A stretch of DNA of 61,276 nucleotides, the filler included, from Globobulimina sp. (Eukaryota), in the NCBI GenBank assembly GCA_003354225.1. It is 19 parts of 19 records of this genome, joined end to end, with 100 filler letters (N's around TTAATTAATTAA, not from the genome) between each part and the next. Parts side by side here need not be neighbours in the genome. Positions count along the whole stretch, not along the records: positions 38,774 to 41,903 come from PIVH01003645.1; 18 more parts are not named here. The stretch is one strand, 5' to 3'. Position numbers and translations under genes: made by a program. Under the pieces are notes generated by a model. The model had not been told where the DNA came from. It saw only the letters and a program-made list of their open reading frames with translations, and made no database searches. Shown here piece after piece: positions 6,365 to 58,048 of the stretch (positions are counted from its first letter, which is position 1; each line of letters begins with the position of its first letter).

Positions 6365-6464
6365 NNNNNNNNNNNNNNNNNNNNNNNNNNNNNNNNNNNN
6401 NNNNNNNNTTAATTAATTAANNNNNNNNNNNNNNNNNNNNNNNNNNNNNNNNNNNNNNNNNNNN

Positions 6465-8501
6465 CCTGGATCGACTTATTTAACAATGCTAATATTTCAT
6501 GCAATTTTTCCGAAATAATTTTTTCATTTTGTAACTTATTTCTATTTTTATTCCCATCAAACACCGAATTCCATAACTCATCGTCATTCAACATCACATT
6601 AAAAGACTTCCGCAACTCACCGGATATATTTATTTCATAATGCGCGCCTTCTTCGATATACTTTTCATACAATAACTTGGCTTTGGTCTGAAATGGCTTC
6701 AAATCGCCATAAACGCCTTTCGATTTACGCCGGTGATGAGAGTGTGAATGGGAATGCGAGTTTGAATGTGACCGTTGTACATGCAATGAATCACTGCTAT
6801 TACGGTGTATTTGTATGGGTATCGGTATGGAGGGCAACTTGCAAACATCTGACTTTTGCGAAGATGTATTGGTCAAAGTTAAAACTGGCAGCGCATTGTC
6901 AACGGTTATAAGGATATGATCAATCGGTTTGCTCTCCGGCGTGATATGCAATGTAGTCGTATGAATACGCGATGGTTGCGGTGATGGGTCTTTTTTATTA
7001 CTATGCGTATCTGCTAACGGTGGCGGCGGTGTTTTGCTAAATATATTTTGTATCATTGGCGGAATGTGTTTCTGAAACACCACATTAATGCCTTTCGCGT
7101 CATGCTCACTGTCGTGGTTTTTGTCTGTTTTTGAGCCATAAACGATTAATGATTTAGGGATATCTGGTGGCAATTTGACGAGTTCCCTGCGATAGTCATG
7201 TTTGGTGGACAGGTAATCATTGAAATTATTGATGCAATATTCAGTGTATTCTGTAAATTCGACAATGGCCAATAAACATTCCACTGTATACAATGCAAGT
7301 TATTGCTATGTTATGTACGCTAATGCGTGTATATAGGATATAAAATGTCAAAGCGGTCTTAAAAACGTAGAAACGTATTTCTTTTACATGCTTGTTGTTT
7401 ACATCTGAATGTGCAGAAATGTTATAGCACTAAAAAAATATTAACTAAACTGGAGAACTCGTGAGCTAAATGGCTCATAAATGTATGAAACATAATGGAA
7501 TCTTCAAGCAGTTGGGTGAGAGAGATACGTTTATGTTTGGCAGCAGATTTGTGATGCGGTGTTGGGAGAGAATTAGTGGCCGTTAATTGTAGTGGCGGAT
7601 TGACATTATTTGATTGATTCTGTGCAGCTACAAATGCTTGTAACTGTAAAAGCGGTGAAAGGGATACTTTATTTTTATAAAATACCATAAAAGTCATAAC
7701 AATGATAATACAGAAATGTACCATACAAATGATATGCGACTCGATGAGAGTTAACAGCTCATATTCAAACTGCAGACATAAACATAACACAGAAAATGTA
7801 ACATTGGTTGCAAATAAAATGAATAAAACGATGAATATATATTTTGTGGCGTTGTGAATCCAAAATGTGTCGTGAAAGGAAGGAGTATTGAACCATAGAT
7901 ATATGATAAAAGAGTAAGGGATGGCGACCATAATAATATCCATACTCCACAAATGGACGTAGTATGATTCTGTGGCTGCATACACCTGCAATCTGATAAG
8001 GATACTAATCGCAACACTGATGGCATACAGTGGTAATATTATATACATTGCAATGAATTTAGTGTTTCCCCATTTTGAGCGGTTGATTAGATACCAATTC
8101 TTTGCGAGATACTCGCAATTGATGACTGAGCGCCATTTGTTATTCATAGAGGCGCGGACAAATTGGATGTCATAGCGGATGATCCAGAAACGCCACAACA
8201 ATGAATATACCAAACCGTATAAAATTATTGGATATGTTAAAGTGGTGGAAATGTTTAGAATTATGGAGTTTGCTGATATATTACAAATATAATAAAGTGT
8301 CCATAATACGCGATCGATGCAGATATGACTGAGACAGAGAGATAACACGATTAATGTCATTGTAACATGGCGTTTTGCGATGGCGGAGACAAATCGGTAT
8401 TTATAAAATAAATGTATTCCATATAAAGAAAGTGGAAAATAGATGCCCAACCAAAGGGCGATCGAGGACCAACCCACCCAGGTCGGCACTGTGTAATCCA
8501 T
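6465..8501 (-). CDS. 7TM-RGS protein, 3'-truncated
   Basis: About seven hydrophobic segments, then an RGS domain (LTQLLEDSIMFHTFMSHLAHEFS/MECLLAIVEF ... LYEKYIEEGAHYEINISGELR). Intron 7284-7450 restores EFSMECLL. Confidence 0.8.
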
Positions 8502-15335: not shown

Positions 15336-16060
15336 TTATATTGAAAGTGTTTTAATTTTATTTTTATATTCAATTATCCTCGTTCGATGATCAATTTTAT
15401 GAATACCAATTTGTTTCAAATCCGACTCATCCATATCCAGTACAATCTCAATATCATCAAAACCATTTTTTATTAATATTTCAAAATATTCACTTAACTC
15501 AACAATATCGGACAACCAAATTCTTATTATATCGTATTCACTCATTTGTTGAATATTTACTTCATGTTTCTCAATTTCATTATGGATATCACTGATTTTT
15601 TGTGTTAATATGCTAATTTGTTGTTTCATTTCTAAAATACTCTGTTGATAAATTTGTTGATTATAACATAAAGATTGTATTTGTTGTGTTGCCTGTTGCA
15701 CATTTGCATTGAACTGACGTTTTAACGAATTAACATCATTCACTCGCATTTCTTCCGTTTGATTTAATCCATTCTTCATATTTTGTTTTATTTGATTAAT
15801 TTTTTGATGAATATTCGAAATAGTACTTGGATCTCGAATACATTTCACCCGATACTGATTCAACGATATCGATTCAACGAACTCAATCGTATTATTATTA
15901 TTATCTTTTACACCGCCACTTATACCATCTGTTTGTCCATATGCATGCATTTCCATCTATGTACAGATCCAAACCCATAATTTGTATAACGTATACATGT
16001 AAAATAAGTAACCTTTCGTATATAAATACCTGTTGTATATTATTATTTAATTTGTTTTTC
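15336..16060 (-). CDS. Coiled-coil protein with C-terminal SAM domain, 5'-truncated
   Basis: IRIWLSDIVELSEYFEILIKNGFDDIEIVLDMDESDLKQIGIHKIDHRTRII is a typical SAM domain; probable intron 15957-16029. Confidence 0.75.
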
Positions 16061-16160: not shown

Positions 16161-18747
16161 ATGATCAATTACGAAAAGAAAAATTCTCATTATCCAATTC
16201 CAGCAAAACAAGTCAACATTCAGCAGCATTTTGGATTGATATCATAGATAAAATTAGTAAAGATCCTGCTTATCTAAAATATTTGGTTAAAAATAAAAAA
16301 ATGACTGTAAATGACGTAAATGGGGATGGCAGAACATTGCTAACTCTCTCTGCATTAAAAGGGTCATATGAAATGGTGCAATTTTGTTTAAATGCAGGCT
16401 CTGATATAAATCATAGAGATAATGGCGGTGAGTCAGCTTTAGAGCATGCAAAATCGAACGGATATTATCATGTTGAACAATTATTATTATTCAGTGAGAT
16501 GAATGTAACCATTGGCAATAAAATAAAAAATACATCAAATGTTATGAATAAACAAAAAGGTATAAATCAAAATATATTACAGCAATTAAAACAAATTGGC
16601 GAACAAACAAAACAAATATTTGAAACCACAATAATTGAATTACTTATTAACATAATTAATAAAAAACTTTCATTCGATGATGTATTATTAAACTTATGCT
16701 GGGATATCATATGCAATAATAATTTAGATCCGTTATCTTCTGATTTATGGAAAACATTATCAACAACGAGCAAAAACATAATTAAATCTGGCAGCAAAAG
16801 AGATTGGTATTGGTTTAAAACCTTTGTAGTGCCATCCACAGTTAATTTTGTAATGTTGTTTTTTGTTTTTGCAGTGCACATTGCATCGTGTATATACGTT
16901 TCCGTGTTAACGTTTCTGTTTTTTGTTTTGGTGTATATATAAAGATTTGGTTCAGGAAGATTCAGATCGCAGAAAAAAGTTATACGAAAGAAGAAAAATA
17001 TAACGAAACTGAGACCAAACAAGAGCCACAAGAAAATGACGCATATTATCTATATTTTGAACTGTTAAAATTAGTTGAAACCGAAGCAACATTGCAATTG
17101 AATGAATTGGATAAAAATCTGAATAAATTGGCAAATAAAAACAACAATGATTGGAAAGAGTTGGTTGAATGGGAGATACCAACCGAATATGAGACAGTGC
17201 GTCAAGATGGCATTCCAAATGGTATTGAATCGCAGTATACACGTTCGCAGTTATTAGAAAAATCAGGAGCTACATTTAATGCGCATAAATTTTACGATCA
17301 TAATCAATATTTGTCTGAATTAATATTATTAGCACAAATTGTTAATGATGATTTTCAAACATCTGTGCAAAAAATATTTAATATTAATGATGATCAAAAA
17401 ACTGATGCTGACAATGCTAAAATGGCAATAAAATATAGCAAAGGACCCGTAAAGTTAATAGAAAGAGCACGTGCTAAGGCAGAAAATGATTATTCTGATC
17501 AATTATATCCAACCTCAGCCTGTGTACTGGACATGAATCGATGTTCATTATTTTTCAATGATATAAATGCATTGTTAGCAGCTTTACAATTATTTGTGAA
17601 CAAAATCAAATACTTTCAATCAGGATCAATAATCGGCATTGTTCGGAACAAAAATGGTTTCAAAGATTATGTCAAACAGACACAATACGCAGATATTAAG
17701 TTGAACGTATTAATAAAAGGAAAAAAGAATAATATTATTGGAGAAGTTCAGTTTCTTTTGGAAATAATGAAAGATTACAAAGACAAAGCACATAATTTAT
17801 ATTCGATACAACGACAACGAGAATATATTGAAAATTCAGTGTCAAAAATATTACCGATGTTATTGGATGAAGAGAAACAATTATTTATTCGAGGAGATAT
17901 GAACGATGTGGTTGGATTATATCGTTTGATGACAATTAATAATTTTACGTATCAAGATTTGATAAAAAGAAACAAAGAAAATCAAACAATATTGTTACAT
18001 TCGTGCGAGCTCGGAAATAATAAAATATTTATGTTTCTGCAATCCATATTAAGTAAAGATTTATTTATTAAATATTTATTTTTATCCGCTATTTACGATG
18101 ACAAACCCATTGAAATGGCAATCATGGAAAGTAATGCATTTATTGTTCAAAATGTATTTAAAATGAAACAAGTGCAAGAAAAATATAATAACGATGATAA
18201 TGAATTGTTTCGTTTATTTTTTTGGTTATTTGCATTTAATAAAAGTAGTGATATTATTGATTATGTGTTGTCGATATTAAATATATCAAATGATAAAGTA
18301 TCGTCAATGATGAATTATAAATATCCAAAACCATTAAAACCACCTCCAAATGGAGCAGCCGTATATCATCGATATAACATAATTTGTGAAGTTGTAAAAT
18401 GGAATAAATTAAATGGCTTAAAAAAATTTATATCAATAGTTGGCGAGAAAACATTTATTGAAGGCACATTTATTGATGATGGTTATGGTAGAAATGCATT
18501 GGAATATGCAATTATAAAAAATAAATTGTATATAATGAAATATATGTTAACAATGAAGGATATCAAAGCAAAATGTGGCAATGATAAGGATATGTTATTT
18601 CAAATTATTTCAACTATAAATAAAAATTATAATGAATCAATGGTATTATGTATAATAAATTCGTTACAATTAAATGAAAAAACATTAAAAGAATTGCAAT
18701 CATACAAACAAATTGATATCACCAAAATATTGAATTTATGTAAATAA
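16161..18747 (+). CDS. Ankyrin / RelA-SpoT-like nucleotidyltransferase / ankyrin protein, 5'-truncated
   Basis: ANK repeats (GRTLLTLSALKGSYEMVQFCLNAGSDINHRDNGGESALEHA); intron 16841-16944; core GPVK..RARAK, LDMNR, RNKNGF, YADIKLN, GEVQ, AHNLYSIQR; C-terminal ANK-like repeats (NQTILLHSC, GRNALEYAI). Confidence 0.8.
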
Positions 18748-20725: not shown

Positions 20726-22522
20726 TCATTCCAGTTTATTTTTAATCTTTTTTAAGAATTGAGAAATACGTAAAAACTTGGGACGTTGATTTGATTCATG
20801 TTTCCATAACATTTTCATTAATGTGGCTAAATCGGGTATTTGCTTCACAAATCTATATATATTATCAAATAATCATTATATAAAATATGAAAATACAACT
20901 TATTTTAACTGTAAATGGTTAATTTGTGGTCGTAATTGCTCAGTAACCACTTTAACACCGGCTTGTTTTGGCAATAAATGTGGATAAGGTTCCAATTCAC
21001 TAAATATTTCATATAAAGTAATTCCAAATGAGTAAGCATCTGTTTTCTCCGTATATTCATTGGTGATAATTGATTCCGGTGCCATCCATTTGATAGGTTT
21101 TCGATGATGTCGATGATTATTTTTAGATTGTTTCAATCGACTCATTCCTAAGTCAGACACCACCACTCTCCAATTCTCATCCACCAACAAATTACGCGCT
21201 GAAATATCACCATGAATCACATTCTGTTGATGCAAATGTAAAATACCCAACGATGCATCAATACACATTTCAAGCTTCAACTGCAGCGATAACTGTTTAC
21301 AATGTTTGCGTTTTTTGATAATATCATGCAACGATCCATGCAAATAATACTCTGCATATTTCATGTACAGTACAGTATATATATTGATATTATATTTGGA
21401 ATTATCATACCAGTCACAATACAAATTTCAGGCGCTGTGCAAAATCCGTACATTCGAGCAATATGTTTATGTCCACCCACTTTCTGCATGAGCGAAGCTT
21501 CGCGTTTAAAGTTTTCCAAATCTCTCGCAGACAAACTCAAATATTTAACATTCAACTTTTTAACCGCCACATCAATTCCATTGTATTTTGCTTTGAATAC
21601 CTGTCCAACACAGCCGCTTCCAATAAACTCCTGTTCTGTGAAATCTATATCATAATATTTGATCTCCTGTGGAACAAAACATTTCAGCAAACGAATGGTA
21701 CTGAACCTCTCAAAATCATCTGGCGACACACTCCCTACATTGATATTGTAGCAGTTGTCTGTTGATTTGTATATCATATCATCCTGAGTCGAATCGATAT
21801 CATTGTCATTTTTAGCACGTACAGATTCCAAATGATTCAACTCATATTCTGCCGGATAGGGGCAATCGCGTCGAAATGTTGATTTCTGCGTTGATATTTG
21901 TTGATAATCATTCATGTCATCCTCATCCATTTGGATTATAGTGGATCTATGCTGCATTTCGTGATTTTCATCCATGTGAATATCTGCAGAGATGTTACTG
22001 TTGCTGTTGCGCTCTCGAATGGTTTTGAATGCAGTGTCTATTAAGATTTCAGCTGTTTCTTCTGACGATTTACTGTATACAAATGATAATCGATTCTTTG
22101 TTGCCAGTTTTGTTTCAGGTGGAGTTAAACTTAAACTTTCTTCCCGATCCACATCTTGTTCTTGTTGTACATGTTGTGGTGGTGGTTGTGTTTGTGTCTT
22201 GCCATTAATATTAATGTTGTCAAATCGAAACGTATTATCTGAATCGCCGATTTTGCCGGGAATTGCCATGTATTGATATGTGGATACCTCTGATCGCAAT
22301 GTGCCACATTCAAATTGAGGTTTAGATGGTAGATCGGATGCTTTCTGCTTTGGAACAGCTCTTTTTTTTGATACAAAACGACATGAAATATAAGTGATGC
22401 TAACTGACAATAATAAGAATGATAAAAATGATATTACTACAATTACCCAGATATCTCGGTTTGCAAATGATGATAATGTTTGATTGGAGGAGTATATTAC
22501 AAATGAACCACAACTGTTGTTT
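20726..22522 (-). CDS. Single-pass receptor-like TKL/tyrosine-kinase-like protein kinase, 5'-truncated
   Basis: TM segment (IWVIVVISFLSFLLLSVSITYI), GSGCVGQV, VAVK, HGDISARN, DLG, PIKWMAPE, DAYSFG; introns 21352-21410 and 20853-20909; last exon QRPKF, stop at 20726. Confidence 0.9.
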
Positions 22523-39011: not shown

Positions 39012-40475
39012 ATGTTAAAAAGCATATTAACAATATTATCAATATTGTTGCCATCTCTATTCAACGGCAGTAAACATGCACAAAGAAGACTACTCGGTGC
39101 CAGAAACCTACCTTATACATTACAAGAAATCGAACGATTGAATGATTTATTTATTCCAGCATTTAAAAAGGAGGGTTTCATTCATGTATTAATGTTTGGT
39201 GAAGAAAGTGATGCGATTAAATTCGGATTAAAGCAACGGTTTTGGCCTCAAGATGCAATTGAAAAATTGCTCAGAGAACAACCTGATTATAATTATCAAT
39301 CAGCTCAAATTAAACGAGTTGATCTATTGTCAGGCCATCCGGATCAATATCAGCTTACTATTACTTGTAACTTATTAAGTATGCAAAGCAAAGAAAAAAT
39401 ATTTTTAATTACGCCATCAATATTTACTCAATTTCTTGCTTTTGGTACAAAACTACCCCAATTGCAGATGAATAAATTTGCACAACCAAAAGTACAGAAT
39501 TTTATACAGCATCGCAAAAAGCAATTGGCGATATTGCATGATGGTAAGTTTAGTATCATTCCAGCTGCAGATGATCAAAAACATTTAATTTACGATGTTT
39601 ATAAAGCAATTCAAATTGGATTGGGATTGGACAGCAACTGGCATTTAAAGGATGATATTGATCAACTTCGCACTATTCCAGAATTATTTGACCATATACT
39701 TTCTTTCTACAATACTGCAATTTATATCATTTTTGCTGAGGATTATACAATGACTGTGGATACACTTAAATATGCACCTGCTGTGCATGGAGAACGTAAT
39801 ACATTAACTTTGATGTATTGGATTAGTTGTAAACAATGGAGTGCCATTGAAATCAAAAAACATTCTCCAGCATCCAAGAGAAAACCTGCAGTCCAGCACC
39901 AACATCTTGACGAAGTCCAACAGATAAAGTTTGCAGATATTAAACAAAAAGGATATACAGAAATAATACGGCTGGATGATATTGTTGGACAGATTGAAGA
40001 TCAATTTTTAAAAAAAGAAGCAATTGGTTATGCGGACACAATCAAAGAAAGAGTACAGAAAGATGAAGAACTGACTGATTGCTGGAATATGTATCAAATA
40101 TTTAAAACAACTCACCACAATGCTGCAATATTAAATATGTTTAACAAAGAAGGAGTATTAATTCAGGATGCAGCCGATTTTTTGGATGCAGTGGGTCAAC
40201 AAATTGGTGATGGTAAAACAGCAAATGATGTTTTAAGTTATTTAAGAAAGTCGGTTCAAGATGAAAATGATATGAATGTATTGAATGGTGGATCTGTAGC
40301 ATCAATGTCCGAATTGATTTCAAAAATATATAAAGTTAATGTTAGATTGTATCAGGATGACTATGGTCTTACAATGGAACGGAAATATATTGGAGATGAT
40401 GCAGGCAGAGCTTATCCAGATGTTAGAATATATCAGGATTCTAATGGCAAATATCATGCTGTCATAAAAAGCTAG
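39012..40475 (+). CDS. Secreted protein with RRLL motif and two degenerate OTU-like segments
   Basis: Signal peptide MLKSILTILSILLPSLFNG, then HAQRRLLG; C-terminal GGSVASMSELISKIYKVNVRLYQ...VRIYQDSNGKYHAV. The ORF is solid; the OTU call is tentative. Confidence 0.65.
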   Translation: MLKSILTILSILLPSLFNGSKHAQRRLLGARNLPYTLQEIERLNDLFIPAFKKEGFIHVLMFGEESDAIKFGLKQRFWPQDAIEKLLREQPDYNYQSAQIKRVDLLSGHPDQYQLTITCNLLSMQSKEKIFLITPSIFTQFLAFGTKLPQLQMNKFAQPKVQNFIQHRKKQLAILHDGKFSIIPAADDQKHLIYDVYKAIQIGLGLDSNWHLKDDIDQLRTIPELFDHILSFYNTAIYIIFAEDYTMTVDTLKYAPAVHGERNTLTLMYWISCKQWSAIEIKKHSPASKRKPAVQHQHLDEVQQIKFADIKQKGYTEIIRLDDIVGQIEDQFLKKEAIGYADTIKERVQKDEELTDCWNMYQIFKTTHHNAAILNMFNKEGVLIQDAADFLDAVGQQIGDGKTANDVLSYLRKSVQDENDMNVLNGGSVASMSELISKIYKVNVRLYQDDYGLTMERKYIGDDAGRAYPDVRIYQDSNGKYHAVIKS

Positions 40476-40614
40476 TTTGTTTAATTTGTACTTTAACGTT
40501 TAGATATTTTATAAAAATAATTAATTAATAACTCTTGTAATCTTGCAATCTCTTTGCAAACAAAAGAATTGATATTGAAGTTTTCGTGAAGTAAGTTAGT
40601 CATCAAACTGAAGT

Positions 40615-41646
40615 ATGGGAGCCTGTCTTAATAATCGTTTCGAATATACAGCAGCATCACAGAATTCCTTTGAGTCAAAATATAAAAATGTAATCAATAC
40701 ATTAACAAGTTGGTGGAATGAAAATCTCGAAGTATTGTCAGATGATAAGTATTTAGAATGCGCATTAACATTTTATAACAATTTGTTCACTAAAATGCAA
40801 TCTGTGAGAGACATATTCCTATCACGCAACATCGACATGAATGTGCAGGCACTAAAAATGTTGGGCATGTTCAGATGGATAATATTAACGTTAACTAATT
40901 CCTCGTTATCCAACAATACGATAATAGCCTTGCATCAATTAGGAACATTGCATGACAATCTCGGGCTTGTATTAGATGATTATTTGGATGCTGGTGATGT
41001 TTTCCATGAAACGATGAGCCACGTTTTTGCAAATACATATACTTTGCGAGTCAAATGGTGTTTTGATGTGTTGTATGAAATTATGGTCGGCGTTATGATG
41101 GGAAATGATTTTAGCAAATTATGTGAAACACAAACGGATAAATTAATGTTGCTATGGGGACACATTAATGAGCCTGGAAATTCAGTTTCTGATTGTTTGA
41201 ATAATCAGAACGTTATGACATATTTACAATTATTTATGAAAGAAAAATTTTGTATTGAATTATTTTTGTTTATTACTGATTACAGGAAATACAAATTAAT
41301 TACAAATAAAGATGCTATTATCAAATTTGGTGAGTATATGGAGGGAATGTATATTGATTTCAATTCGGAACAAGAAATAAATATAAGTGGAGAGTGTAGA
41401 AACGCATTTTATCAGAATTTGGAAAGTGTTGATGATAATGTACATACGTACACATATACACACATTACGTATGATGATTGCTATGAGGAAGTACTTCAAT
41501 TAATTGCAATGTCGGTTTTTCCATATTTCAAAAAAGCTATTAAAGGATGTGTTGATTCAATAAATGTGAAAGTTCCTCCGGCAAAATTAGCAAAAAAAAT
41601 TGATTTCGTGTATATCTCAAACAGATCCAATTCATTGCTTTTTTGA
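40615..41646 (+). CDS. N-acylated globin-RGS fusion protein
   Basis: MGACL start; globin about 40680-41100 (FYNNLF, RDIF, QALKML, LGTLHDNLG); RGS about 41180-41535 (FMKEKFCIELFLFITDYRKY, YIDFNSEQEINIS, EVLQLIAMSVFPYF); one intronless ORF. Confidence 0.85.
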   Translation: MGACLNNRFEYTAASQNSFESKYKNVINTLTSWWNENLEVLSDDKYLECALTFYNNLFTKMQSVRDIFLSRNIDMNVQALKMLGMFRWIILTLTNSSLSNNTIIALHQLGTLHDNLGLVLDDYLDAGDVFHETMSHVFANTYTLRVKWCFDVLYEIMVGVMMGNDFSKLCETQTDKLMLLWGHINEPGNSVSDCLNNQNVMTYLQLFMKEKFCIELFLFITDYRKYKLITNKDAIIKFGEYMEGMYIDFNSEQEINISGECRNAFYQNLESVDDNVHTYTYTHITYDDCYEEVLQLIAMSVFPYFKKAIKGCVDSINVKVPPAKLAKKIDFVYISNRSNSLLF

Positions 41647-42383
41647 GATACATTATATTATAGATGTAGCCAGATTTTATCTTGTTGTAAATATATATAT
41701 TAAATCTGGTTCATCATTCCCTTACTTATTTCTATTACTAAATCTGAGTGTTTTTGCTGGATATTAATAAATTAGTTGTACATATTTCAGATCATATATC
41801 GTTTTCAGGATTCGAACGCAAATATCAAGGCTGAGAAAAAAAAGCTCACAATTTTCAATAAAACTTGAAAAAACTTGCATTAAATATTGAAAGAAATCTT
41901 TGANNNNNNNNNNNNNNNNNNNNNNNNNNNNNNNNNNNNNNNNNNNNTTAATTAATTAANNNNNNNNNNNNNNNNNNNNNNNNNNNNNNNNNNNNNNNNN
42001 NNNGCAATCACAGTTATGTATTATTGTAAATACTGTCATTATTCATTAATAATAATATATTTATATAACCGTAATTACCGTATAAACAGAGACAGAGCCA
42101 ATGGAGCTACCACAAAAGGTGAATGTTGGTTGGCTATCTTATCCAAACCAAATAATGGTTGTTCTAATTCTATTAATTCGCAAAAATTTATCAACGCAAT
42201 AACAAACTGCAATATTCAGTCAATGAGCACAGTTAAAACACACTCTCTTTCTCTTATCCTCGCACAATAATTATTTACATATTAATTAAATTAAATGATA
42301 AGATATCCCGTCATCGCTCAGGATTCAGTGCTAAACTGCGCCGCAATGACTTATTATCACCGAGGACATCATTAAGAAACATT

Positions 42384-45132
42384 ATGAATACAATTACAAA
42401 CAACAAATCTGATACAAATTCCATTGAGAACAAATCCATTAACACTCAAAATGAAGCAGACCAACCCAATGAAATAGCCACTGATTCTGATTTAGATGAT
42501 AACCAATTTGGAATATTAAAGAAATTACCAACATGGAAAAAGTTAAAATTATCAGTTTATGAACGGAGACAACGATGGCGGCGCAAACAAAAAACTATAC
42601 AGCGCTTAAAACGAAAACAACAAAAAACTGTGAAACCAGTTGCAAAAACACCATCGGACCGCAAAATAAACAAAATAAGACTGACCAAACCGAGGAGTAC
42701 AGAGTGGACAGGCACCGCCTTTACATATTCCGATTTGGATTTCAGTTCCACCGATAATGACTTTGATGATATCATCAAAGGACCGAGTCCGCCGCCGAGG
42801 AAAATGATGAGTGCCGAACTCAAAGCGATGTGCGGCAATCTCATCAATGAGTTATTATCCAGTCCGCGTTCCTTTTATTTCAGCGATTATTTCCCATTTC
42901 ATAAGTGGGGTTTGACCGATTATAATGATTACTTTTCGGCAAATTACCTCCATTTAAATCTGGTCAAGCAACAGTTAGAACGGGACGAGTATGAAACGCC
43001 TGGCTTATTTGCTGCTGCTGTAAGGACTATATTTAACAATGCAACATTGTACCATTGGGACGGCGCAAAGCAATATCGAATTAAAGTCAAAGCGATGTTG
43101 TTAACGGAGGAATTCGAGGAGAAATATTTGGATATTTTGGTATGTGTTTTTGTTGCCATTCTTAAATTAAATGTGTTTTTTGCCATTTGAAGTAAAGCCA
43201 CACTCAAAAAATGCTTGTTTATGTCACATGTCAACCTCAGGCTGAAGATGAAGTCTCGCAAAAGATACGCCAACAACTCATTCACTCTCAGCAACAGCGA
43301 GAAGAGAAACGAGTGGAAGAGCGTAAGCATAAAATATCCTCCACGTCGTACGAGGCCTGTACAGAAACTGGAGACTATTCCGGCAGTGATGGTGACATTG
43401 AGGATGAATCTGATGATGATGACGAATACAGCGTGTCAAGGAAGACACATTTGACACATCACCAACCCTCCACCACCAATACAAGTATCACTATGAACAG
43501 CATCGCAGAGCAGAAACAAGGCACTGTTGCGGATGGGGACGAAATCTGTGAAATGTTGAAGAAATTACAACAATTAACCGACGTTACAGACGTACAAACT
43601 ATGAAAGAGACGAATGACTACATCAACAACATACGTTTGGAGCTAATGATCGCTCAGAAAATCAGCCGGGAATCGCCGCGTTTGCAGAAAATGAGATTTT
43701 TGAAGCAATTGCATGCCTCACAGTTGTTAATGGAAAAGAAACAAAGAGATATGATTTCGTACAGAACCAAGAATATGACGCCTCGGAATAACTACAATAC
43801 ATTTTTTCCGGATGAAAATTATACTGAAAATGCCTGGAATCGACGTAAAAACATCAGCCGTGACAGCAGCATAACTTCGCGCGGCTCGCATACTTTTATC
43901 CGTGCACACGATCTGAGCATCCGATATGCGGTCAACTTCCCCAAATCCATCACTATCAAAGCAAATAAGCGCATCGTCGACGACAACGAAGGTCAGTTAG
44001 TTAACAATCAAACTCTTATGGCATGAATAAAAATGCATAACACATCAAATATGACCATAAACGTTTGCTTGTTTGCACGAATTCTGATTACATACACTCC
44101 ACAAACAAAAAAAAAGGAACCGCATTGTCCAAAACCGTATCGGTAGAGTCTGTCCACTCTGTTGCTATATTGCAGGAAGGGGATGAATCTGAGACAGAAT
44201 TCGAACAGTTACCGTCGGAAATGACGGACGAGAAATTGATTGAGGAGCATACCGACGACCTATGGGCCGCGATGCCGTTGGTTCCAGTGGACATATTGGA
44301 GAAAGCAGTGAGTAATGACGGCGTGACCTTTGTTGAAAGCGAGTGTATAGTCTGTAATGATTTTAGTGGCGCACAGCATTTGTTGACCGATGAATATTTT
44401 GCCTACACATACTCGTACGTTAAAGGCCAATTTATGGCTCATTTTGGTCAGTTGCGAGTGGGCCGCGATGTGTTTGTGGATAAATTGCATTATATCTTCG
44501 ACAGCCATCAAGAATTAAGTTGGTTGCGACTGAATTTGACGAACTATTATGTGACACCGAAAAGTATCCTGCCGATGGAATGCATGAATGATACGCAGAT
44601 GAATGCGACACGGAATGCGTTGTATGGATTGTTGCAGATATTGCAGCCGACTGCGCAAAGTATGTCTGCTGCGGAGGTTATCTATCAACATAAGTTATAT
44701 TTGTATCAATTGTTGAAGCTATCGGGTGTTATTTTGGTCGATGAGCATGAGCCTGACTTGGATGAATACGACGAGTTTATATTATCTTTGGATGAGTTAT
44801 GGGCTTTAACCGACGATCAAAGCGACAGCGATATCGATGGCGAGGATCATTTGGATGTAATTGAGCCATTTGGCGGCCATGGCGCTGATCCGTTGTTGTC
44901 GTTAACTAAAACAAAGAGTAAACCCGGCAGCACGCCAGTTGTTGTATGCAATACCTTTAGTTTTGCAGACGTCTATGAAACACGGTTTGCATCGCATGAT
45001 ATGAACGATAATCGATATCGCAATGCGAATACATGCGATAATGATGAATTAATCCCATTTATTAACAGTGAATCAGATGAAGCCGAAGAGATAATTCCTA
45101 TGCCATTAAATGGGACAGATTATGCACATCAG
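42384..45132 (+). CDS. Divergent bromodomain-containing protein, at least 3 exons, 3'-truncated
   Basis: GLTDYNDYF..YLHLNLVKQQLERDEYETPGLFAAAVRTIFNNATLYH; introns 43140-43240 and 43992-44116 join three ORFs in frame. Confidence 0.7.
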
Positions 45133-47283: not shown

Positions 47284-48361
47284 ATGTCACATTACAATCA
47301 CACCAAACGACATTACAATGAGAGTCATCCAAGATGGCACAACAACAATTACAACAGTAAGAATTGGACCCCTCGCAAATGGAGAGGATCAAGAGGCAGA
47401 GGGAGAGGATACAGAGCAAGAGGGAGAGGGAGAGGTAGAGGCCGTGGCAGAGGTCGTGGTCGTGGTCGTGGCCGAGGCCGAGGGCGTAATTGGCACAATG
47501 GACGTAACTACAATACCCATGGCAGAAATTATGATTTTCCATTTACAACGGATATCTCACGAATGAAATTAGATAAAAACATGGATAATTTTCTGCCTCA
47601 ATGTGACCGATATGCACCGGGTGGCTCAGAATGTGAGAATTTAGGAACAGCAACACCGGCATCTATTCGTTACATGAAATATCAAACATACTCAGCCACA
47701 GCGAGCCCAGTCTATGGTTTGTCGCAATACGAAGCACCAAACATTGCCACGTACACTGAGATTGAAAGTGAATACAAACAATATTTGCATGAATTAAACA
47801 TTGATGATAAGTATCCACGCTTAAAATATTATATTCGCTCAGAGTCGGATAAGAAAGATGTAATACATTTTGGTCAATTAAAATTATTATTATCAGAGAT
47901 CCGATTTTTAACCGAATACAATGAGTTGGGTGATGTGGTTATTTATGCCGGGGCTGCCCCGGGACATCACATCGAATATTTATCGCAGTTATTCCCTCGA
48001 CTTAAGTTTGAGTTATATGATCCATGTGAATTCAGCAAGAAATTGCATAACAATGAGAACATAGAATATCATCGAGAATATTTCACCAATAAATTAGCAA
48101 AAGAATTGGCCGAAAAATATCAAAAGAATGGCGAGAATATATTATTTATATCGGATATTCGGACTGCGGATCATCGACAAATGGAAGAAATTGAAAATGA
48201 ACAATGCATTGAAAGAGATAATAAATGGCAAAAAGAGTGGGTCCAATCCATGAAACCAAAGAAAGCTATGCTTAAATTTAGAATGCGTTAAGTAATTTAT
48301 TTTATATTTTCGGATTTGTATATACTCAGAAAAATGCGTGTTTTTATATATAGCATATCCG
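47284..48361 (+). CDS. Cap-specific mRNA (nucleoside-2'-O-)-methyltransferase, poxvirus VP39-like, with RG tract; 3'-truncated
   Basis: HFGQLKLLLSEIRFL, VIYAGAAPGHHI, FELYDP, LFISDIRT, MKPKKAMLKFR; intron 48287-48353 restores KFRMPYP. Confidence 0.85.
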
Positions 48362-50076: not shown

Positions 50077-51408
50077 ATGGATGCTGTCCGGGATTCCATC
50101 ATTGCGAGTCATAATAAATTAATACAAGAATTAGAAGTGACATATTCAACTTATATCACTGCTTTGTTTCAACAAAAAGCGTTTATTCATCAAAAAATAC
50201 AAGAAAATCTTTATAAAGAACTATTTAAAATTGATAATATTGCGACAAAACACACTCAAAATAAACCACAAATATCAAGCAATAGAAAAAATTCCGAAGC
50301 ACAAATTAAGAGTCACATGGAACAACCCAATGTTGACAATATTGAAAAGCTCACAGAAAAACATGAAAAACATACAAAAGACACAGAATCGTTAAAACAA
50401 GACAAAATAATATTACCTGTAGGGGCAGATCATAAAAGTGAAGCAGAACTATTAAAACGTGCAGGCAATAAATTATTGAAACAAAAGAAATATCAAAGAT
50501 CAATTGTTGAATATACAAAAGCAATAAATTTAAATCCATTGAATGCAATATATTATGCCAACCGAGCCACTGCATATATCAAATTGAGGCATTATGCAAA
50601 AGCTGTGATTGATTCGTATGTGTTATGCATATTTCCTTTTACTTAATTCCATTATATGTCTGACTGTAATTGCTTCAGTCGCCAGGCCTCTATGATCGAC
50701 CACACTTATATCAAAGCATATGCTCGTGAAGCTTTTGCGGAATATCAAATGAATCATTATCAAAACGCGTATGATATATATCAAAATGCACTGAGAATAG
50801 CATCACCAGATAAGAATAAGAGACTGTATCAACAAATGCAAGATGGCATCAAATTATGTCAAACAGGAATACAGGACACAACACAAAATAAGTTGGTTGA
50901 TAAAAATAGGCGAGGGAAGGTTTTAAGTGAATGTAATAAAACATTTAAACAAAATCAATGTTTGCAAAAGCATATGGCTCAACATATATATATGTATATT
51001 ACATCAAAGCAAGCGGTCTGTCCTCATTGTAACAAACCGTTTGGAAGTAAGCAGGCGTTGTTGAAACATGTTGAAAATAATCACACTGTGATAATAAATA
51101 CAAAAGGATCAGAGTTGCAGTTATTTGACTGTCAATATCCATGCAGTGAATGCAACATTTCATTTCAAACACAACTTGAATTGGAAACACATATAAAACA
51201 ACATGGAAATGTAGGATTGAAGGAAATGGTTTGTTCCTCTAACAAACGAATAGAAGTTAATGCAGGATTTAATGACGGGAGTCATACAAAACAAACAAAG
51301 GATGATGAGATTGATGGGATGGAGATGCAGGTGATATATCCACAAAAATATTCTGGAAATGGTTTTTTGTATACATTGCATGTGCTAAAAACATCAGAAC
51401 AATATTGA
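50077..51408 (+). CDS. TPR + C2H2 zinc-finger protein
   Basis: TPRs (AELLKRAGNKLL...YTKAINLNPLNAIYYANRATAY); intron 50616-50678; fingers CPHCNKPF..LLKHVENNH and CSECNISF..LETHIKQH. Confidence 0.8.
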
Positions 51409-55894: not shown

Positions 55895-58048
55895 TTATTT
55901 GCCCCAGAAATTTCTCCTTGAGGGATGTTCTTTGATTGATTGTTGTTTACAAAACTTTGACAATGCTTTGACATTTAATTTTTTTGCTCTATGCAATTGT
56001 CTTTGAATATGTACGATTATAACATTATTTCTTCGCAAATTGTAGGATACGTTTCGGAATAATTCAATTTTATCATACACATTAAATAACAATTCCATTT
56101 GTTTCGGATTTACTTTTTGCAATTTTGATATTTTTAATAATTCGTCCGCTTGAAATGCGTCCTTTAAAAAAACACCCAAATATGGTATTGCCGGCGCAGA
56201 TAAACTCCATAAACTTTCCCGTAACGAAGCATGATTCCTGGAATGGTCAATTAATTTTGCAATTTTTTGCATAAATTCTTTTAATTGAATCATATTTGTC
56301 AATATTTGTAAGTCATTATTAAAATATTTCATATCCGTACTGCTCAATGCCAAATATATCTGTACCGCACCATACATATTGCCCAACGACAACAATTCAA
56401 TCCCAATTCTACATATTTTTTCAATTGTTTTTTTTCGATTTTTACAACATTCGACAGCAATCTCAAACTTTGCCCAAACTGTAATTGATTCCATAAATAT
56501 TATCAATTCCGCAATGTTTGGAGCAGTGATATATTTATCTTTTTTTGTCCAAGCTTTCCGTAACAACTCACAAGGTCGAATTGCTGCAAACAAATCAAAT
56601 GCAATTAAGGTTATTTGTTGTGCAAATCCACGACAATGATCCAATAAAAATATTGCTTCTGAATTATCATTTGCGTGAAATATAGAAAATGCTGATTTTG
56701 TGTGCTGGACATCGTATGATTTCACCACATTTAAAGAATTTGAGTTTTGTTTTTTCTTTTCATCCATATTTTTATTTTTATGTTTCAGAGATTTGAATGG
56801 CAGTGATCTATGCAAACGTAATTCAAGTTCATTATAAGTATCATGCGCCACTTGTAATGTGTTTATTGTGTTACTTTTTTTTAATTGTTGTATTTCTTTT
56901 CTTTCACATGCCAGGAATTGATGGCTAGAATGTCGTTTTTGTAAAACATAATGGAAAAACTTTTGCTTTATTTCATCTTTTTTAGCAATCTTTTGATACC
57001 AACTCAAATCTGACGGAATATCTTTTGTTTCTTTATTACACAAATCCTGTTGAAAATAATCAGTTTCTTCATCAGAATCTTGGCTGTCGGACAAGAAACT
57101 ATTTAAACCATTTTGTAACATTATTTTTGAGCTGATATTGGCTGCCATTGTTGGTGAATTTGCTATATTTAAATCATTGTTGGCTAATGCTTGTAATTCA
57201 GAATTTAATTGTTTTTGTAATGAATACTGATCCCGATAGCTTTTAATTAATTTTTGTGTCGCTTTATAAATTGATAAATGTTCATTTCTGCCATTTGTTT
57301 GTTGCAATAGAAAAGAAATAAATTTATTCAATAATAATCTACATTTGCTACATTGTGCAAAATCTTCAAACCATAAGAAATTGACCCATTTTATACAGAA
57401 ATTAATAACTTTTAACGTTCCCGCTGTCTCATTCAATTCAAAGTTTTGGCAAAATGAATTAATTAATAATTGCATTAACTGTGACGATGTTGCAAATAAT
57501 CGATGCACAAGACACAATTCTGCTATTTTGCGATTATTTGTTAATGAATCCGTCAAATATGAATATATATCTATTTGCTCCGTATCTGTCCCTTCAATCA
57601 CTAATTCAATGACGCATTTCGCGCATAAATATACTGACAAATTATTATGTTTCCTCGATACCCCTTCAATCCAATATTCTTTCTCTCTCTCTTCTTCTTT
57701 CTCATCTTTATCGGCATCATGTTGATATTTTTTATTACACGAAATACATAAAATATTATCCTTGTTTCTGTTTATATTCATATCCATATTATATTGCCAT
57801 TCAACAACATCACAGTTACAATAAGCTCTCAGTACTCCACAGCACATATTTTTATGCATAGCATCATCGTCGCCAATTATGTCAAAACAATCAGTTTCGT
57901 CATATTGGCAAATATTATATTTCGTATTAAGTCTCAGCATAATACCATCTTTATAGTCATTTAAATATTGTTTCATTCCGCCGGATCGATCATTCTTTTG
58001 CCTTTTCCTTGTTTCTACAGATCGATTATCAAAAAACCAATATAAATT
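55895..58048 (-). CDS. RasGEF (REM + CDC25 domains), 5'-truncated
   Basis: LVHRLFATSSQLMQLL, KVINFCIKWV (REM); FAQQITLIAFDLFAAIRPCEL, APNI, GNMYGAVQIYLALSS, PAIPYLGVFLKD (CDC25); Cys-rich region upstream. Confidence 0.85.
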   Translation of the reverse strand, partial: NLYWFFDNRSVETRKRQKNDRSGGMKQYLNDYKDGIMLRLNTKYNICQYDETDCFDIIGDDDAMHKNMCCGVLRAYCNCDVVEWQYNMDMNINRNKDNILCISCNKKYQHDADKDEKEEEREKEYWIEGVSRKHNNLSVYLCAKCVIELVIEGTDTEQIDIYSYLTDSLTNNRKIAELCLVHRLFATSSQLMQLLINSFCQNFELNETAGTLKVINFCIKWVNFLWFEDFAQCSKCRLLLNKFISFLLQQTNGRNEHLSIYKATQKLIKSYRDQYSLQKQLNSELQALANNDLNIANSPTMAANISSKIMLQNGLNSFLSDSQDSDEETDYFQQDLCNKETKDIPSDLSWYQKIAKKDEIKQKFFHYVLQKRHSSHQFLACERKEIQQLKKSNTINTLQVAHDTYNELELRLHRSLPFKSLKHKNKNMDEKKKQNSNSLNVVKSYDVQHTKSAFSIFHANDNSEAIFLLDHCRGFAQQITLIAFDLFAAIRPCELLRKAWTKKDKYITAPNIAELIIFMESITVWAKFEIAVECCKNRKKTIEKICRIGIELLSLGNMYGAVQIYLALSSTDMKYFNNDLQILTNMIQLKEFMQKIAKLIDHSRNHASLRESLWSLSAPAIPYLGVFLKDAFQADELLKISKLQKVNPKQMELLFNVYDKIELFRNVSYNLRRNNVIIVHIQRQLHRAKKLNVKALSKFCKQQSIKEHPSRRNFWGK

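Follow-up and report, generated by a model that had tools for sequence, protein, structure and literature searches.

Can the gas or redox state of a haem group be fed directly into heterotrimeric G-protein signalling by a single eukaryotic protein? This question is raised by a gene in a 61,276-nucleotide stretch of DNA from Globobulimina sp. (assembly GCA_003354225.1), the whole of which is referred to below as the window. One reading frame at 40615..41646 on the plus strand, within the part taken from PIVH01003645.1, encodes a globin domain that is followed by an RGS domain. An earlier note, made from the sequence, had proposed that its product is a membrane-tethered haem sensor acting on G-protein shut-off. 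From the present analysis, the two-domain nature of the protein and its membership in a family are near certain, and the sensing role is a conditional reading of the parts from which the protein is built.

A globin and an RGS domain in one reading frame

The coding sequence is intron-free in the ORF list, begins with MGACL, ends in a TGA stop and specifies 343 amino acids. Because an in-frame TGA lies at 40609-40611, directly 5' of the ATG, the MG start is fixed, barring an upstream exon. The complete coding sequence is colinear with that of a related protein (P0001, described below), which keeps the MG(x)C beginning, and the single frame with an MGACL start that had been claimed for this locus was borne out. 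It was noted that the gene has a GC content of 0.31 and a GC3 of 0.31, in line with the genes beside it.

The junction between the domains (nucleotides ~41110-41185) was found to be spanned by assembled contigs from the public runs of two studies, as the earlier note had expected of a true fusion. Record 6 of X1 corresponds to 40990-41898 and record 12 of X2 to 40638-41177, and in the second study record 21 of X3 corresponds to 40896-41287 with zero differences. These contigs are short, of low depth and from libraries whose kind is not on record, and they show contiguity and not transcription. Since bridging contigs come from two studies and a full-length orthologue of 64% identity exists, the junction is not an assembly artefact; it is genuine and does not reflect chance. 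An assembly or gene-model chimera of two genes is, together with the giant-virus or viral-insert origin taken up with the gene content of the window, an extremely improbable account of the locus. Besides the junction being spanned in two studies, proteins with the fusion are present in the transcriptome-derived sets of several genera.

Run X3 also contains a 101-base contig of depth ~410 that matches only 40846-40888 (43 bases) and has unrelated flanks. This interval encodes the most conserved stretch of the E helix (QALKMLGMFRWII), and the contig probably derives from a paralogue or from another organism that shares the motif.

Orthologue and family distribution

We searched 5.8 billion proteins with a word-indexed method and obtained 754 candidates, which included one close relative. 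This protein, P0001, has 348 aa, carries the source label EP01084 Bolivina argentea and shares 64-66% identity with the window protein over 99% coverage. Their alignment runs colinearly from Met1 through to the C-terminus, with M1, G2, C4, Y54, F68, Q78, K81, H113, E215 and N256 invariant. Identity reaches 73% in the globin domain (103/141), 59% in the RGS domain (77/130), 52% in the linker and 65% (15/23) in residues 321-343. NCBIfam gave 0 matches for the window protein, and the ESM Atlas had no usable match. The C-terminal tail (aa 316-343; 41560..41643, plus strand) is disordered in the structural model and holds the stretch KKIDFVYIxNRSNS, which is conserved in the orthologue. This tail, conserved though predicted to be disordered, may represent a short linear motif.

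A profile of the window protein and P0001 was then used for a HMMER search of 1.84 billion representatives. It returned 101 matches at E<=1e-3, with 32 at <=1e-10 and 5 at <=1e-30, and many span profile positions ~22-320 unbroken. Among the window protein and 100 of the 101 relatives, the 3690-aa P0057 having been excluded from this run, Pfam at E<=0.01 detected 56 sequences with RGS and 58 with Globin. When domains were assigned with family HMMs built from 37 sequences, 49 of the 101 representatives carried both domains, 39 carried the globin only and 13 the RGS domain only. The globin-only group includes at least 11 MG-start fragments that end early at the C-terminus, and the rest are mostly unrelated tandem-globin proteins. 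The family comprises at least 49 clusters at 50% identity, with the globin preceding the RGS domain in 46 of the two-domain representatives and following it in 3. Because the globin falls below the Pfam cut-off and most members are scored as RGS only, domain-architecture databases hide this family. For residue counts, an alignment (A3; n = 46) was made of the window protein and 45 two-domain sequences, with two cluster members added and with 13 short fragments, the RGS-first forms and near-duplicates omitted. The counts out of 46 given below refer to A3.

The named sources of the 21 proteins that were looked up are Bolivina argentea, Nonionella stella, Ammonia sp. (MMETSP1384), Elphidium margaritaceum (MMETSP1385), Reticulomyxa filosa and Plasmodiophora brassicae, every one of them rhizarian. 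The protist of oxygen-graded sediments imagined in the earlier note is in keeping with a foraminiferal family whose closest relative is labelled as the benthic foraminifer Bolivina argentea. At least 7 differently clustered members are labelled Bolivina and 4 Ammonia, and the family is therefore multi-paralogous. Most relatives come from transcriptome-derived sets (MMETSP ORFs, one of them marked 'type:complete', and EukProt) with both domains in one ORF, and in these relatives a single mRNA thus carries the fusion. The Reticulomyxa member, ETO32836.1, is named only 'RGS domain-containing protein' in UniRef.

In a quick maximum-likelihood search with IQ-TREE, the window protein grouped with P0001 (support 100) and next with P0002/P0103 (95), inside a 13-row clade (100), and the Reticulomyxa member fell in a separate deep clade. 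The Plasmodiophora proteins P0048 and P0112 have the reverse order, with Pfam RGS at 16-112 and Globin at 144-246, and this unit occurs twice in a 644-aa model. They match the window protein by BLASTP in both the globin (8e-5) and the RGS domain (4e-4), and this reversed order argues for a functional link between globin and RGS.

It was noted that several Nonionella- and Bolivina-labelled proteins are near-identical or share 90%-identity clusters (P0002/P0103, P0009/P0108 and P0022/P0111). There may be cross-contamination or shared material between the Nonionella and Bolivina transcriptome sets, and the species labels need care.

The globin domain and its probable haem pocket

The globin domain extends over aa 25-165 (40687..41109, plus strand) and is delimited by PDB match, family profile, structural model and Foldseek. 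Pfam PF00042 (Globin) scored 17.1 bits over residues 52-153 (E 0.0079), which does not reach the gathering cut-off of 22, and PF11563 (Protoglobin), for which the cut-off is 25, gave 12.9 bits (E 0.11). The domain was accepted despite the first of these scores because of two further comparisons. With the single sequence, phmmer against the PDB gave as best match 3wfw_A (E 1.9e-5, residues 44-162), the globin domain of Methylacidiphilum infernorum HGbRL ('hemoglobin-like flavoprotein fused to Roadblock/LC7 domain'). With the 46-sequence profile, the globin part matched HGbI (3s1i) at 1.5e-19, and the same profile matched HGbRL at 4.4e-15, plant non-symbiotic haemoglobin at 1.2e-10 and neuroglobin at 4.3e-7. 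Judging from these comparisons, the globin of the window protein lies outside the protoglobin-type sensor lineage of the classical globin-coupled sensors.

The phmmer alignments place Tyr54 (40774-40776), Phe68 (40816-40818), Gln78 (40846-40848), Lys81 (40855-40857) and His113 (40951-40953, all on the plus strand) opposite their counterparts in HGbRL and HGbI, and we take these residues to be B10, CD1, E7, E10 and F8 of the usual globin numbering. In the structural model, helices at 24-37, 43-60, 62-69, 75-92, 101-115, 120-137 and 144-161 correspond to A-C and E-H of a 3-on-3 fold. Foldseek matched this part to neuroglobin (target TM-score 0.68) and Riftia Hb (0.77) with probability 1.00. The 3/3 globin with B10 Tyr, CD1 Phe, E7 Gln and proximal F8 His that had been read from the sequence is thus found again in the HGbRL and HGbI alignments and in the AlphaFold helices.

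Across the family, the proximal His113 is present in 44 of 46 members and is replaced by Tyr in the other two (the Reticulomyxa member P0060, and P0098). The distal side is more varied: B10 is Tyr in 27/46 and Phe in 15/46, CD1 is Phe in 25/46 and otherwise Met, Leu or Val, Gln occurs at the variable E7 position in 16/46, and Lys at E10 in 22/46. E14 is Met in 41/46, and the G helix keeps a Phe/Tyr in 45/46. On these counts, the Tyr/Gln distal pocket is a trait of the clade of the window protein and not of the family as a whole.

Haem binding by this domain is highly probable. It might instead be a haem-free globin fold that serves as a dimerisation or regulatory module, comparable to that of RsbR, likewise a non-haem globin, and the RGS domain would then be constitutively active; the sub-threshold Pfam score and the Tyr for proximal His in two members point that way. 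The retention of the proximal His in 44/46 and of a hydrophobic pocket (CD1 Phe/Met/Leu/Val, E14 Met, G-helix Phe/Tyr) makes this account improbable. The closest relatives, HGbI and HGbRL, are moreover deposited as 'hemoglobin-like' and are known as haem-binding proteins, HGbRL having both open and Lys-His closed forms.

The RGS domain and the linker

The RGS domain comprises aa 191-315 (41185..41559, plus strand), as defined by Pfam, family profile and Foldseek. For PF00615 (RGS) the cut-off is 23.9 bits, and the match over residues 191-307 reaches 30.5 bits (E 5.3e-7) and takes in positions 2-110 of the 117 in the profile. Of the two Pfam families that the earlier note had named for a check, RGS therefore lies above its cut-off and Globin below. 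The RGS part of the A3 profile matched RGS18 (1.1e-19), RGS2 (5.4e-19), RGS1 (2.1e-18), RGS4 (8e-16) and axin (3e-11) in the PDB. With Foldseek, the target TM-scores lay at 0.80-0.90 for RGS16, RGS8, RGS1 and RGS4, including RGS16 2bt2 at 0.82, RGS8 2ode at 0.84-0.90 and RGS4 1agr at 0.88. The complete RGS box that had been claimed is upheld by these results, and by sequence the domain is a bona fide Pfam RGS domain nearest to the R4 types. It bears a 17-residue insertion at about aa 270-286.

The best-conserved positions of the domain are Cys213 (41251-41253; 43 of 46), Glu215 (41257-41259; 45), Asn256 (41380-41382; 36), the Trp at 302 (38) and Phe305 (41), the three codons listed being on the plus strand. 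In the A3 profile comparison with the PDB, N256 stands opposite the Asn in 'EVNLD' of RGS18. We take Asn256 to be the catalytic 'Asn thumb', equivalent to RGS4 N128, and Glu215 to be equivalent to RGS4 E87. Set against the RGS4 contact residues (S85, E87, N88, D163, S164 and R167), the window protein has C213, E215, L216, S300, V301 and Y304, and the family consensus at 216, 300, 301 and 304 is L, N, H and K. Cys213 presumably corresponds to RGS2 Cys106, and the consensus Asn at 300 to RGS2 Asn184. Because the four contact-aligned residues L216, S300, V301 and Y304 differ, the G-alpha-binding face appears not to be canonical; the alignment indicates that its catalytic core is kept and that its periphery is non-canonical.

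G-alpha is a reasonably probable target of the domain. The sole literature support for G-alpha in Rhizaria is a statement in PMC5784254, which gives more than 30 G-alpha subunits for another rhizarian, Bigelowiella natans. A different possibility is that the RGS-homology domain is regulated by haem or redox state and does not act as a GTPase-activating protein (GAP), and would bind G-alpha as an effector antagonist or an inhibitor of guanine nucleotide dissociation (GDI), or would engage a different partner, for instance a receptor tail or a small GTPase module. The RGS-homology domains of axin, GRK and AKAP10 offer parallels for this, axin and GRK5 are among the sequence and fold matches, and the four contact residues are non-canonical. 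In addition, PMC4842972 describes neuroglobin as a redox-dependent GDI for G-alpha-i; ferric neuroglobin would be a comparable case. Against such a role, the GAP-active R4 proteins lead by 8 orders of magnitude and the Asn thumb (36/46) and Glu215 (45/46) are retained, and the non-GAP possibility appears quite unlikely.

The globin and RGS domains are joined by a linker (41110..41184, plus strand) which is mainly one helix (aa 166-185) in the model and lies within the junction covered by the contigs of the two studies. The AlphaFold2 model built with A3 had a mean pLDDT of 84.5 and a pTM of 0.78 and contains both folds, as the earlier reading of the sequence implies, together with the linker helix, whose mean pLDDT in 10-residue blocks is 86-90. 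Disorder (pLDDT <50) is confined to residues 1-14 and 324-343. The whole-chain pTM suggests a definite arrangement of the two domains in the model. A complex prediction of the globin (15-172) with haem against the RGS domain (186-322), run without an alignment and without controls, gave a score of 0.00 and no verdict.

Putative membrane anchoring

The protein opens with the motif MGACLN and a disordered lead (aa 1-14; 40615..40656, plus strand), in which Gly2 is a candidate for N-myristoylation and Cys4 for palmitoylation. The motif has a Met-Gly start, a permissive residue 6 and a nearby Cys, and by the usual acylation rules it is a presumed signal for both modifications. An MG start is found in 32 of 46 A3 members. 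Among the 49 two-domain representatives, 27 start with MG, and 8 of these 27 have a Cys at residues 3-7. The 22 non-MG representatives include 9 N-truncated fragments and 3 in which translation may truly begin at an internal MG.

Two members carrying the Nonionella label have a different N-terminus. P0026 (908 aa) shows ~7 hydrophobic segments before residue 275, followed by RGS at 314-492 and globin at 659-803, and P0089 (661 aa) is predicted, at a low pLDDT of 40-74, to form seven long helices ahead of residue 270. Both would possess a receptor-like, multi-helix hydrophobic N-terminus of ~6-7 helices, with the order TM-RGS-globin (TM, transmembrane) in P0026. A homology search with the hydrophobic N-terminus of P0089 recovered no homologues beyond itself and an isoform. 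Taken together, these sequence features suggest that membrane location is a recurring trait of the family, which fits an action on lipid-anchored G-alpha.

An anchored globin of this kind could also be a catalytic or buffering protein (an NO dioxygenase, nitrite reductase or O2 scavenger at the membrane, a role that has been proposed for acylated globin X) in which the RGS domain only targets or scaffolds it at membrane sites rich in G proteins and is not under haem control. Its acylation motif is like the one carried by globin X, and the nearest solved globins are the single-domain, high-affinity HGbI and neuroglobin-like folds. According to PMC8153729, this group of organisms makes NO in the course of denitrification. 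The fusion nevertheless persists in at least 5 foraminiferal genera, in many paralogues and in both orders, and the RGS catalytic Asn and Glu215 are conserved, neither of which pure targeting would need. We consider the catalytic or buffering role unlikely.

A proposed mechanism of haem-gated RGS activity

Several lines of evidence favour a lipid-anchored haem sensor that gates an RGS output. Both domains are significant in sequence and in fold; the fusion is conserved, the functional residues are kept and membrane anchoring appears to be a family trait; the best RGS matches are GAP-active R4 types, well ahead of axin; and HGbRL, one of the best solved globin matches, also joins a globin to a signalling domain.

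Under this proposal, myristoylated Gly2 and palmitoylated Cys4 would hold the protein at a membrane's inner face, beside acylated G-alpha, and His113 would ligate the haem. The E and H helices would shift when O2 or NO binds or when the redox state or coordination of the haem changes. The coordination change could be a Lys81-His113 hexacoordination, with Lys81 moving on and off as in HGbRL, the nearest solved relative. The linker helix would relay this movement to the RGS domain and alter its engagement of G-alpha-GTP. How strongly the RGS domain speeds GTP hydrolysis by a foraminiferal G-alpha would depend on the haem state, and the gas or redox state would in this way set the lifetime of the G-protein signal, for example in pseudopodial motility or in an aerobic/denitrifying switch in oxygen-graded sediment. 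PMC8153729, the source paper of the Nonionella and Bolivina transcriptomes, reports denitrification genes that are constitutively expressed in anoxic sediment, with NO as an intermediate. NO is therefore a plausible physiological signal.

A number of observations weigh against this mechanism. The globin stays below its Pfam cut-off, two of the 46 members have Tyr in place of the proximal His, and the distal pocket varies across the family (E7 Gln in 16/46, B10 Tyr in 27/46). On the RGS side, Asn256 is absent in 10/46 members, and L216, S300, V301 and Y304 stand where RGS4 has N88, D163, S164 and R167. No G-alpha was found among the 40 window ORFs scanned with Pfam, and no RNA run is listed among the 5 (2 studies) that match this exact gene. 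Of the membrane-tethered haem sensor for G-protein shut-off that had been put forward, the architecture, the pocket residues and the MG(x)C start are borne out; haem binding, GAP activity and ligand-dependent control are presumed, and the contact-aligned L216, S300 and Y304 differ from RGS4.

We regard the whole chain, from lipid anchor through haem sensor to gated RGS output, as evenly poised between holding and failing. If haem binding and a G-alpha target are granted, ligand-dependent control of the RGS domain could likewise go either way. The broadest proposal is that Foraminifera, or Rhizaria at large, evolved a eukaryotic counterpart of the bacterial globin-coupled sensors, in the form of a large family of haem-globin-RGS proteins with lipid or multi-TM anchors that would be direct readers of O2, NO or redox state and would determine the off-rate of heterotrimeric G-protein signalling. 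This is possible, and is offered tentatively.

Benthic foraminifera, on which the proposal bears, belong to the small number of eukaryotes able to thrive and to denitrify where the sediment is anoxic. Eukaryotic gas sensing otherwise involves H-NOX guanylate cyclases, prolyl hydroxylases and the Cys N-degron oxidation of RGS4/5, and we know of no description of a direct haem-domain input into heterotrimeric G-protein regulation, the link that this family would add. If true, the mechanism would for the first time in any eukaryote place G-alpha regulation under a direct haem-gas input. It would extend the principle of the globin-coupled sensor to eukaryotes with a new output, and would provide a gas-gated G-protein network for moving and for metabolic switching along sediment redox gradients. 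The protein is compact, with ~310 structured residues, and is possibly of use as a gas-switchable RGS tool. Foraminiferal O2/NO sensing is not addressed in the foraminiferal papers searched (the main text of PMC8153729, and PMC13561418).

Gene content and origin of the window

The GC content of the window ranges from 27 to 39%, and 66% of its 61 kb lies in ATG-initiated ORFs that are 100 aa or longer, most genes being apparently intron-free. It was noted that, for a protist of presumably large genome size, the genes are packed unusually tightly. Among 40 window ORFs, Pfam identified eukaryotic genes of signalling and housekeeping: an alpha-galactosidase, MFS, aminotransferase and dUTPase genes, a bromodomain protein (42384-43190), a RasGEF (55895-57976, minus strand), SAM (15336-15956) and ankyrin (16301-16942) proteins, and C2H2 zinc fingers and TPR/BAG (50077-51408), as well as a kinase and one PF01358 gene. 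Signalling genes are thus plentiful here.

The protein kinase gene (20900-22269, minus strand) is split over two frames by an intron at 21352-21410. This intron has 59 nt and reads GTATGA...ATGCAG, and its removal yields a single 436-aa ORF (...ICIVTEYYLHGSLHD...). The window is eukaryotic nuclear DNA, and this canonical GT-AG intron is the clearest evidence for it; the DNA most likely comes from a foraminifer akin to the Bolivina-labelled source. The PF01358 gene (poxvirus VP39/poly(A) polymerase regulatory subunit-type; 47284-48291, plus strand) has relatives that are named 'cap2 methyltransferases' in protists (for example Naegleria; JGI names), and the top match, a EukProt entry, shares 68% identity with it. 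These protist relatives mark it as a cellular cap 2'-O-methyltransferase-like gene and not as a viral marker.

The AT-rich composition (about 27-39% GC), the dense and mostly intron-free ORFs and the PF01358 gene could otherwise suggest a giant virus or a viral insert. A giant-virus origin was largely refuted: the kinase gene has its 59-nt GT-AG intron, the relatives of the PF01358 gene are cellular, 0 relatives were found in 2.9 M viral contigs, and the mimivirus-type AAAATTGA motif is not enriched (16 observed against 20.7 expected).

A second RGS-like fragment was encountered at 6409-7299 on the minus strand, as a 296-aa open frame that lacks a globin and has a low-complexity N-terminal part. 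In a six-frame scan it matched the family RGS profile in the alpha5-alpha6 core alone (aa 204-270, 'LYEKYIEEGAHYEINISGELRKSF') with E 2.4e-5; its Pfam RGS score of 17.8 bits is under the cut-off, and its 3' end enters N runs. The frame could represent one exon from a longer RGS gene, or else a paralogue in decay. There are 36 runs of 44 N in the window, paired and recurring every ~3230 bases (for example 41904-41947 and 41960-42003). None of these runs falls within the globin-RGS gene, and several clip other ORFs. A tRNA scan of the window found none, and a scan of 40300-41900 for bacterial promoters and terminators stayed below shuffle expectation and is irrelevant to a eukaryote.

Comparison with known systems

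Globin-coupled sensors of bacteria and archaea have as outputs the MCP of HemAT, the GGDEF domain of DosC/BpeGReg and the kinase of AfGcHK. Like them, the window protein has an N-terminal globin, a linker and a C-terminal signalling domain; unlike them, it has an RGS output of eukaryotic type, a eukaryotic host, a predicted lipid anchor and a non-protoglobin globin. We regard it as functionally resembling a globin-coupled sensor, and it is not filed as a classical member because the protoglobin-type sensor globin is lacking (PF11563 below cut-off). HGbRL, in which a globin is joined to a Roadblock/LC7 domain (PDB 3wfw/3wfx), shares the B10 Tyr, E7 Gln, E10 Lys and F8 His of the window protein.

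The earlier note knew of no characterised globin sensor with an RGS output, and the literature searches for the combination brought none to light. No description of a globin-RGS fusion was found in the titles and abstract openings searched or, for papers on Reticulomyxa, in the passages searched; most subscription journals lie outside this literature, and an earlier mention, for instance in surveys of microbial eukaryote globins, is possible. The sequences of the family are already public under generic names. The main text of PMC8153729 contains no mention of globin, haemoglobin, RGS or G protein, and PMC13561418 contains none of these terms and no 'oxygen sens'. Close architectural parallels are the Plasmodiophora brassicae 'Globin family profile domain-containing proteins' SPQ97292.1 and SPQ97291.1 (334 aa) and the tandem XXQ34419.1 (644 aa). 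They resemble the window protein in being rhizarian, in having both domains homologous and in the shared EINISG motif, with Pfam scores of 92 bits for Globin and 72 bits for RGS; they differ in placing the RGS domain before the globin, and they are uncharacterised. No paper discussing these proteins was found in the same titles and abstract openings.

Compared with the R4 RGS proteins (RGS18, RGS2, RGS1, RGS4, RGS16 and RGS8), the window protein keeps N256 and Glu215; it departs from them in L216/S300/V301/Y304, the insertion at 270-286 and the N-terminal globin. The nearest functional precedent is neuroglobin, a globin whose haem state controls G-alpha, as a G-alpha-i/o GDI (PMC4842972). Neuroglobin differs in being a stand-alone protein that binds G-alpha-GDP directly, whereas the window protein carries a fused RGS domain. 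Globin X is an N-myristoylated and palmitoylated membrane globin of animals, with the same MG..C-type dual acylation motif and no signalling domain. Among RGS proteins, AtRGS1 is a 7TM-RGS protein, and RGS4/5/16 are under O2/NO control through the Cys N-degron (ADO) pathway. In these cases an RGS domain is coupled to a sensor or to O2/NO, and the hydrophobic helices of P0026 and P0089 are comparable; the coupling is through a 7TM sugar receptor or regulated degradation, in place of the built-in haem domain proposed here. Set beside these systems, the window protein would be a globin sensor module with a new output and equally an RGS protein with a new input, and it belongs to a sizeable rhizarian family.

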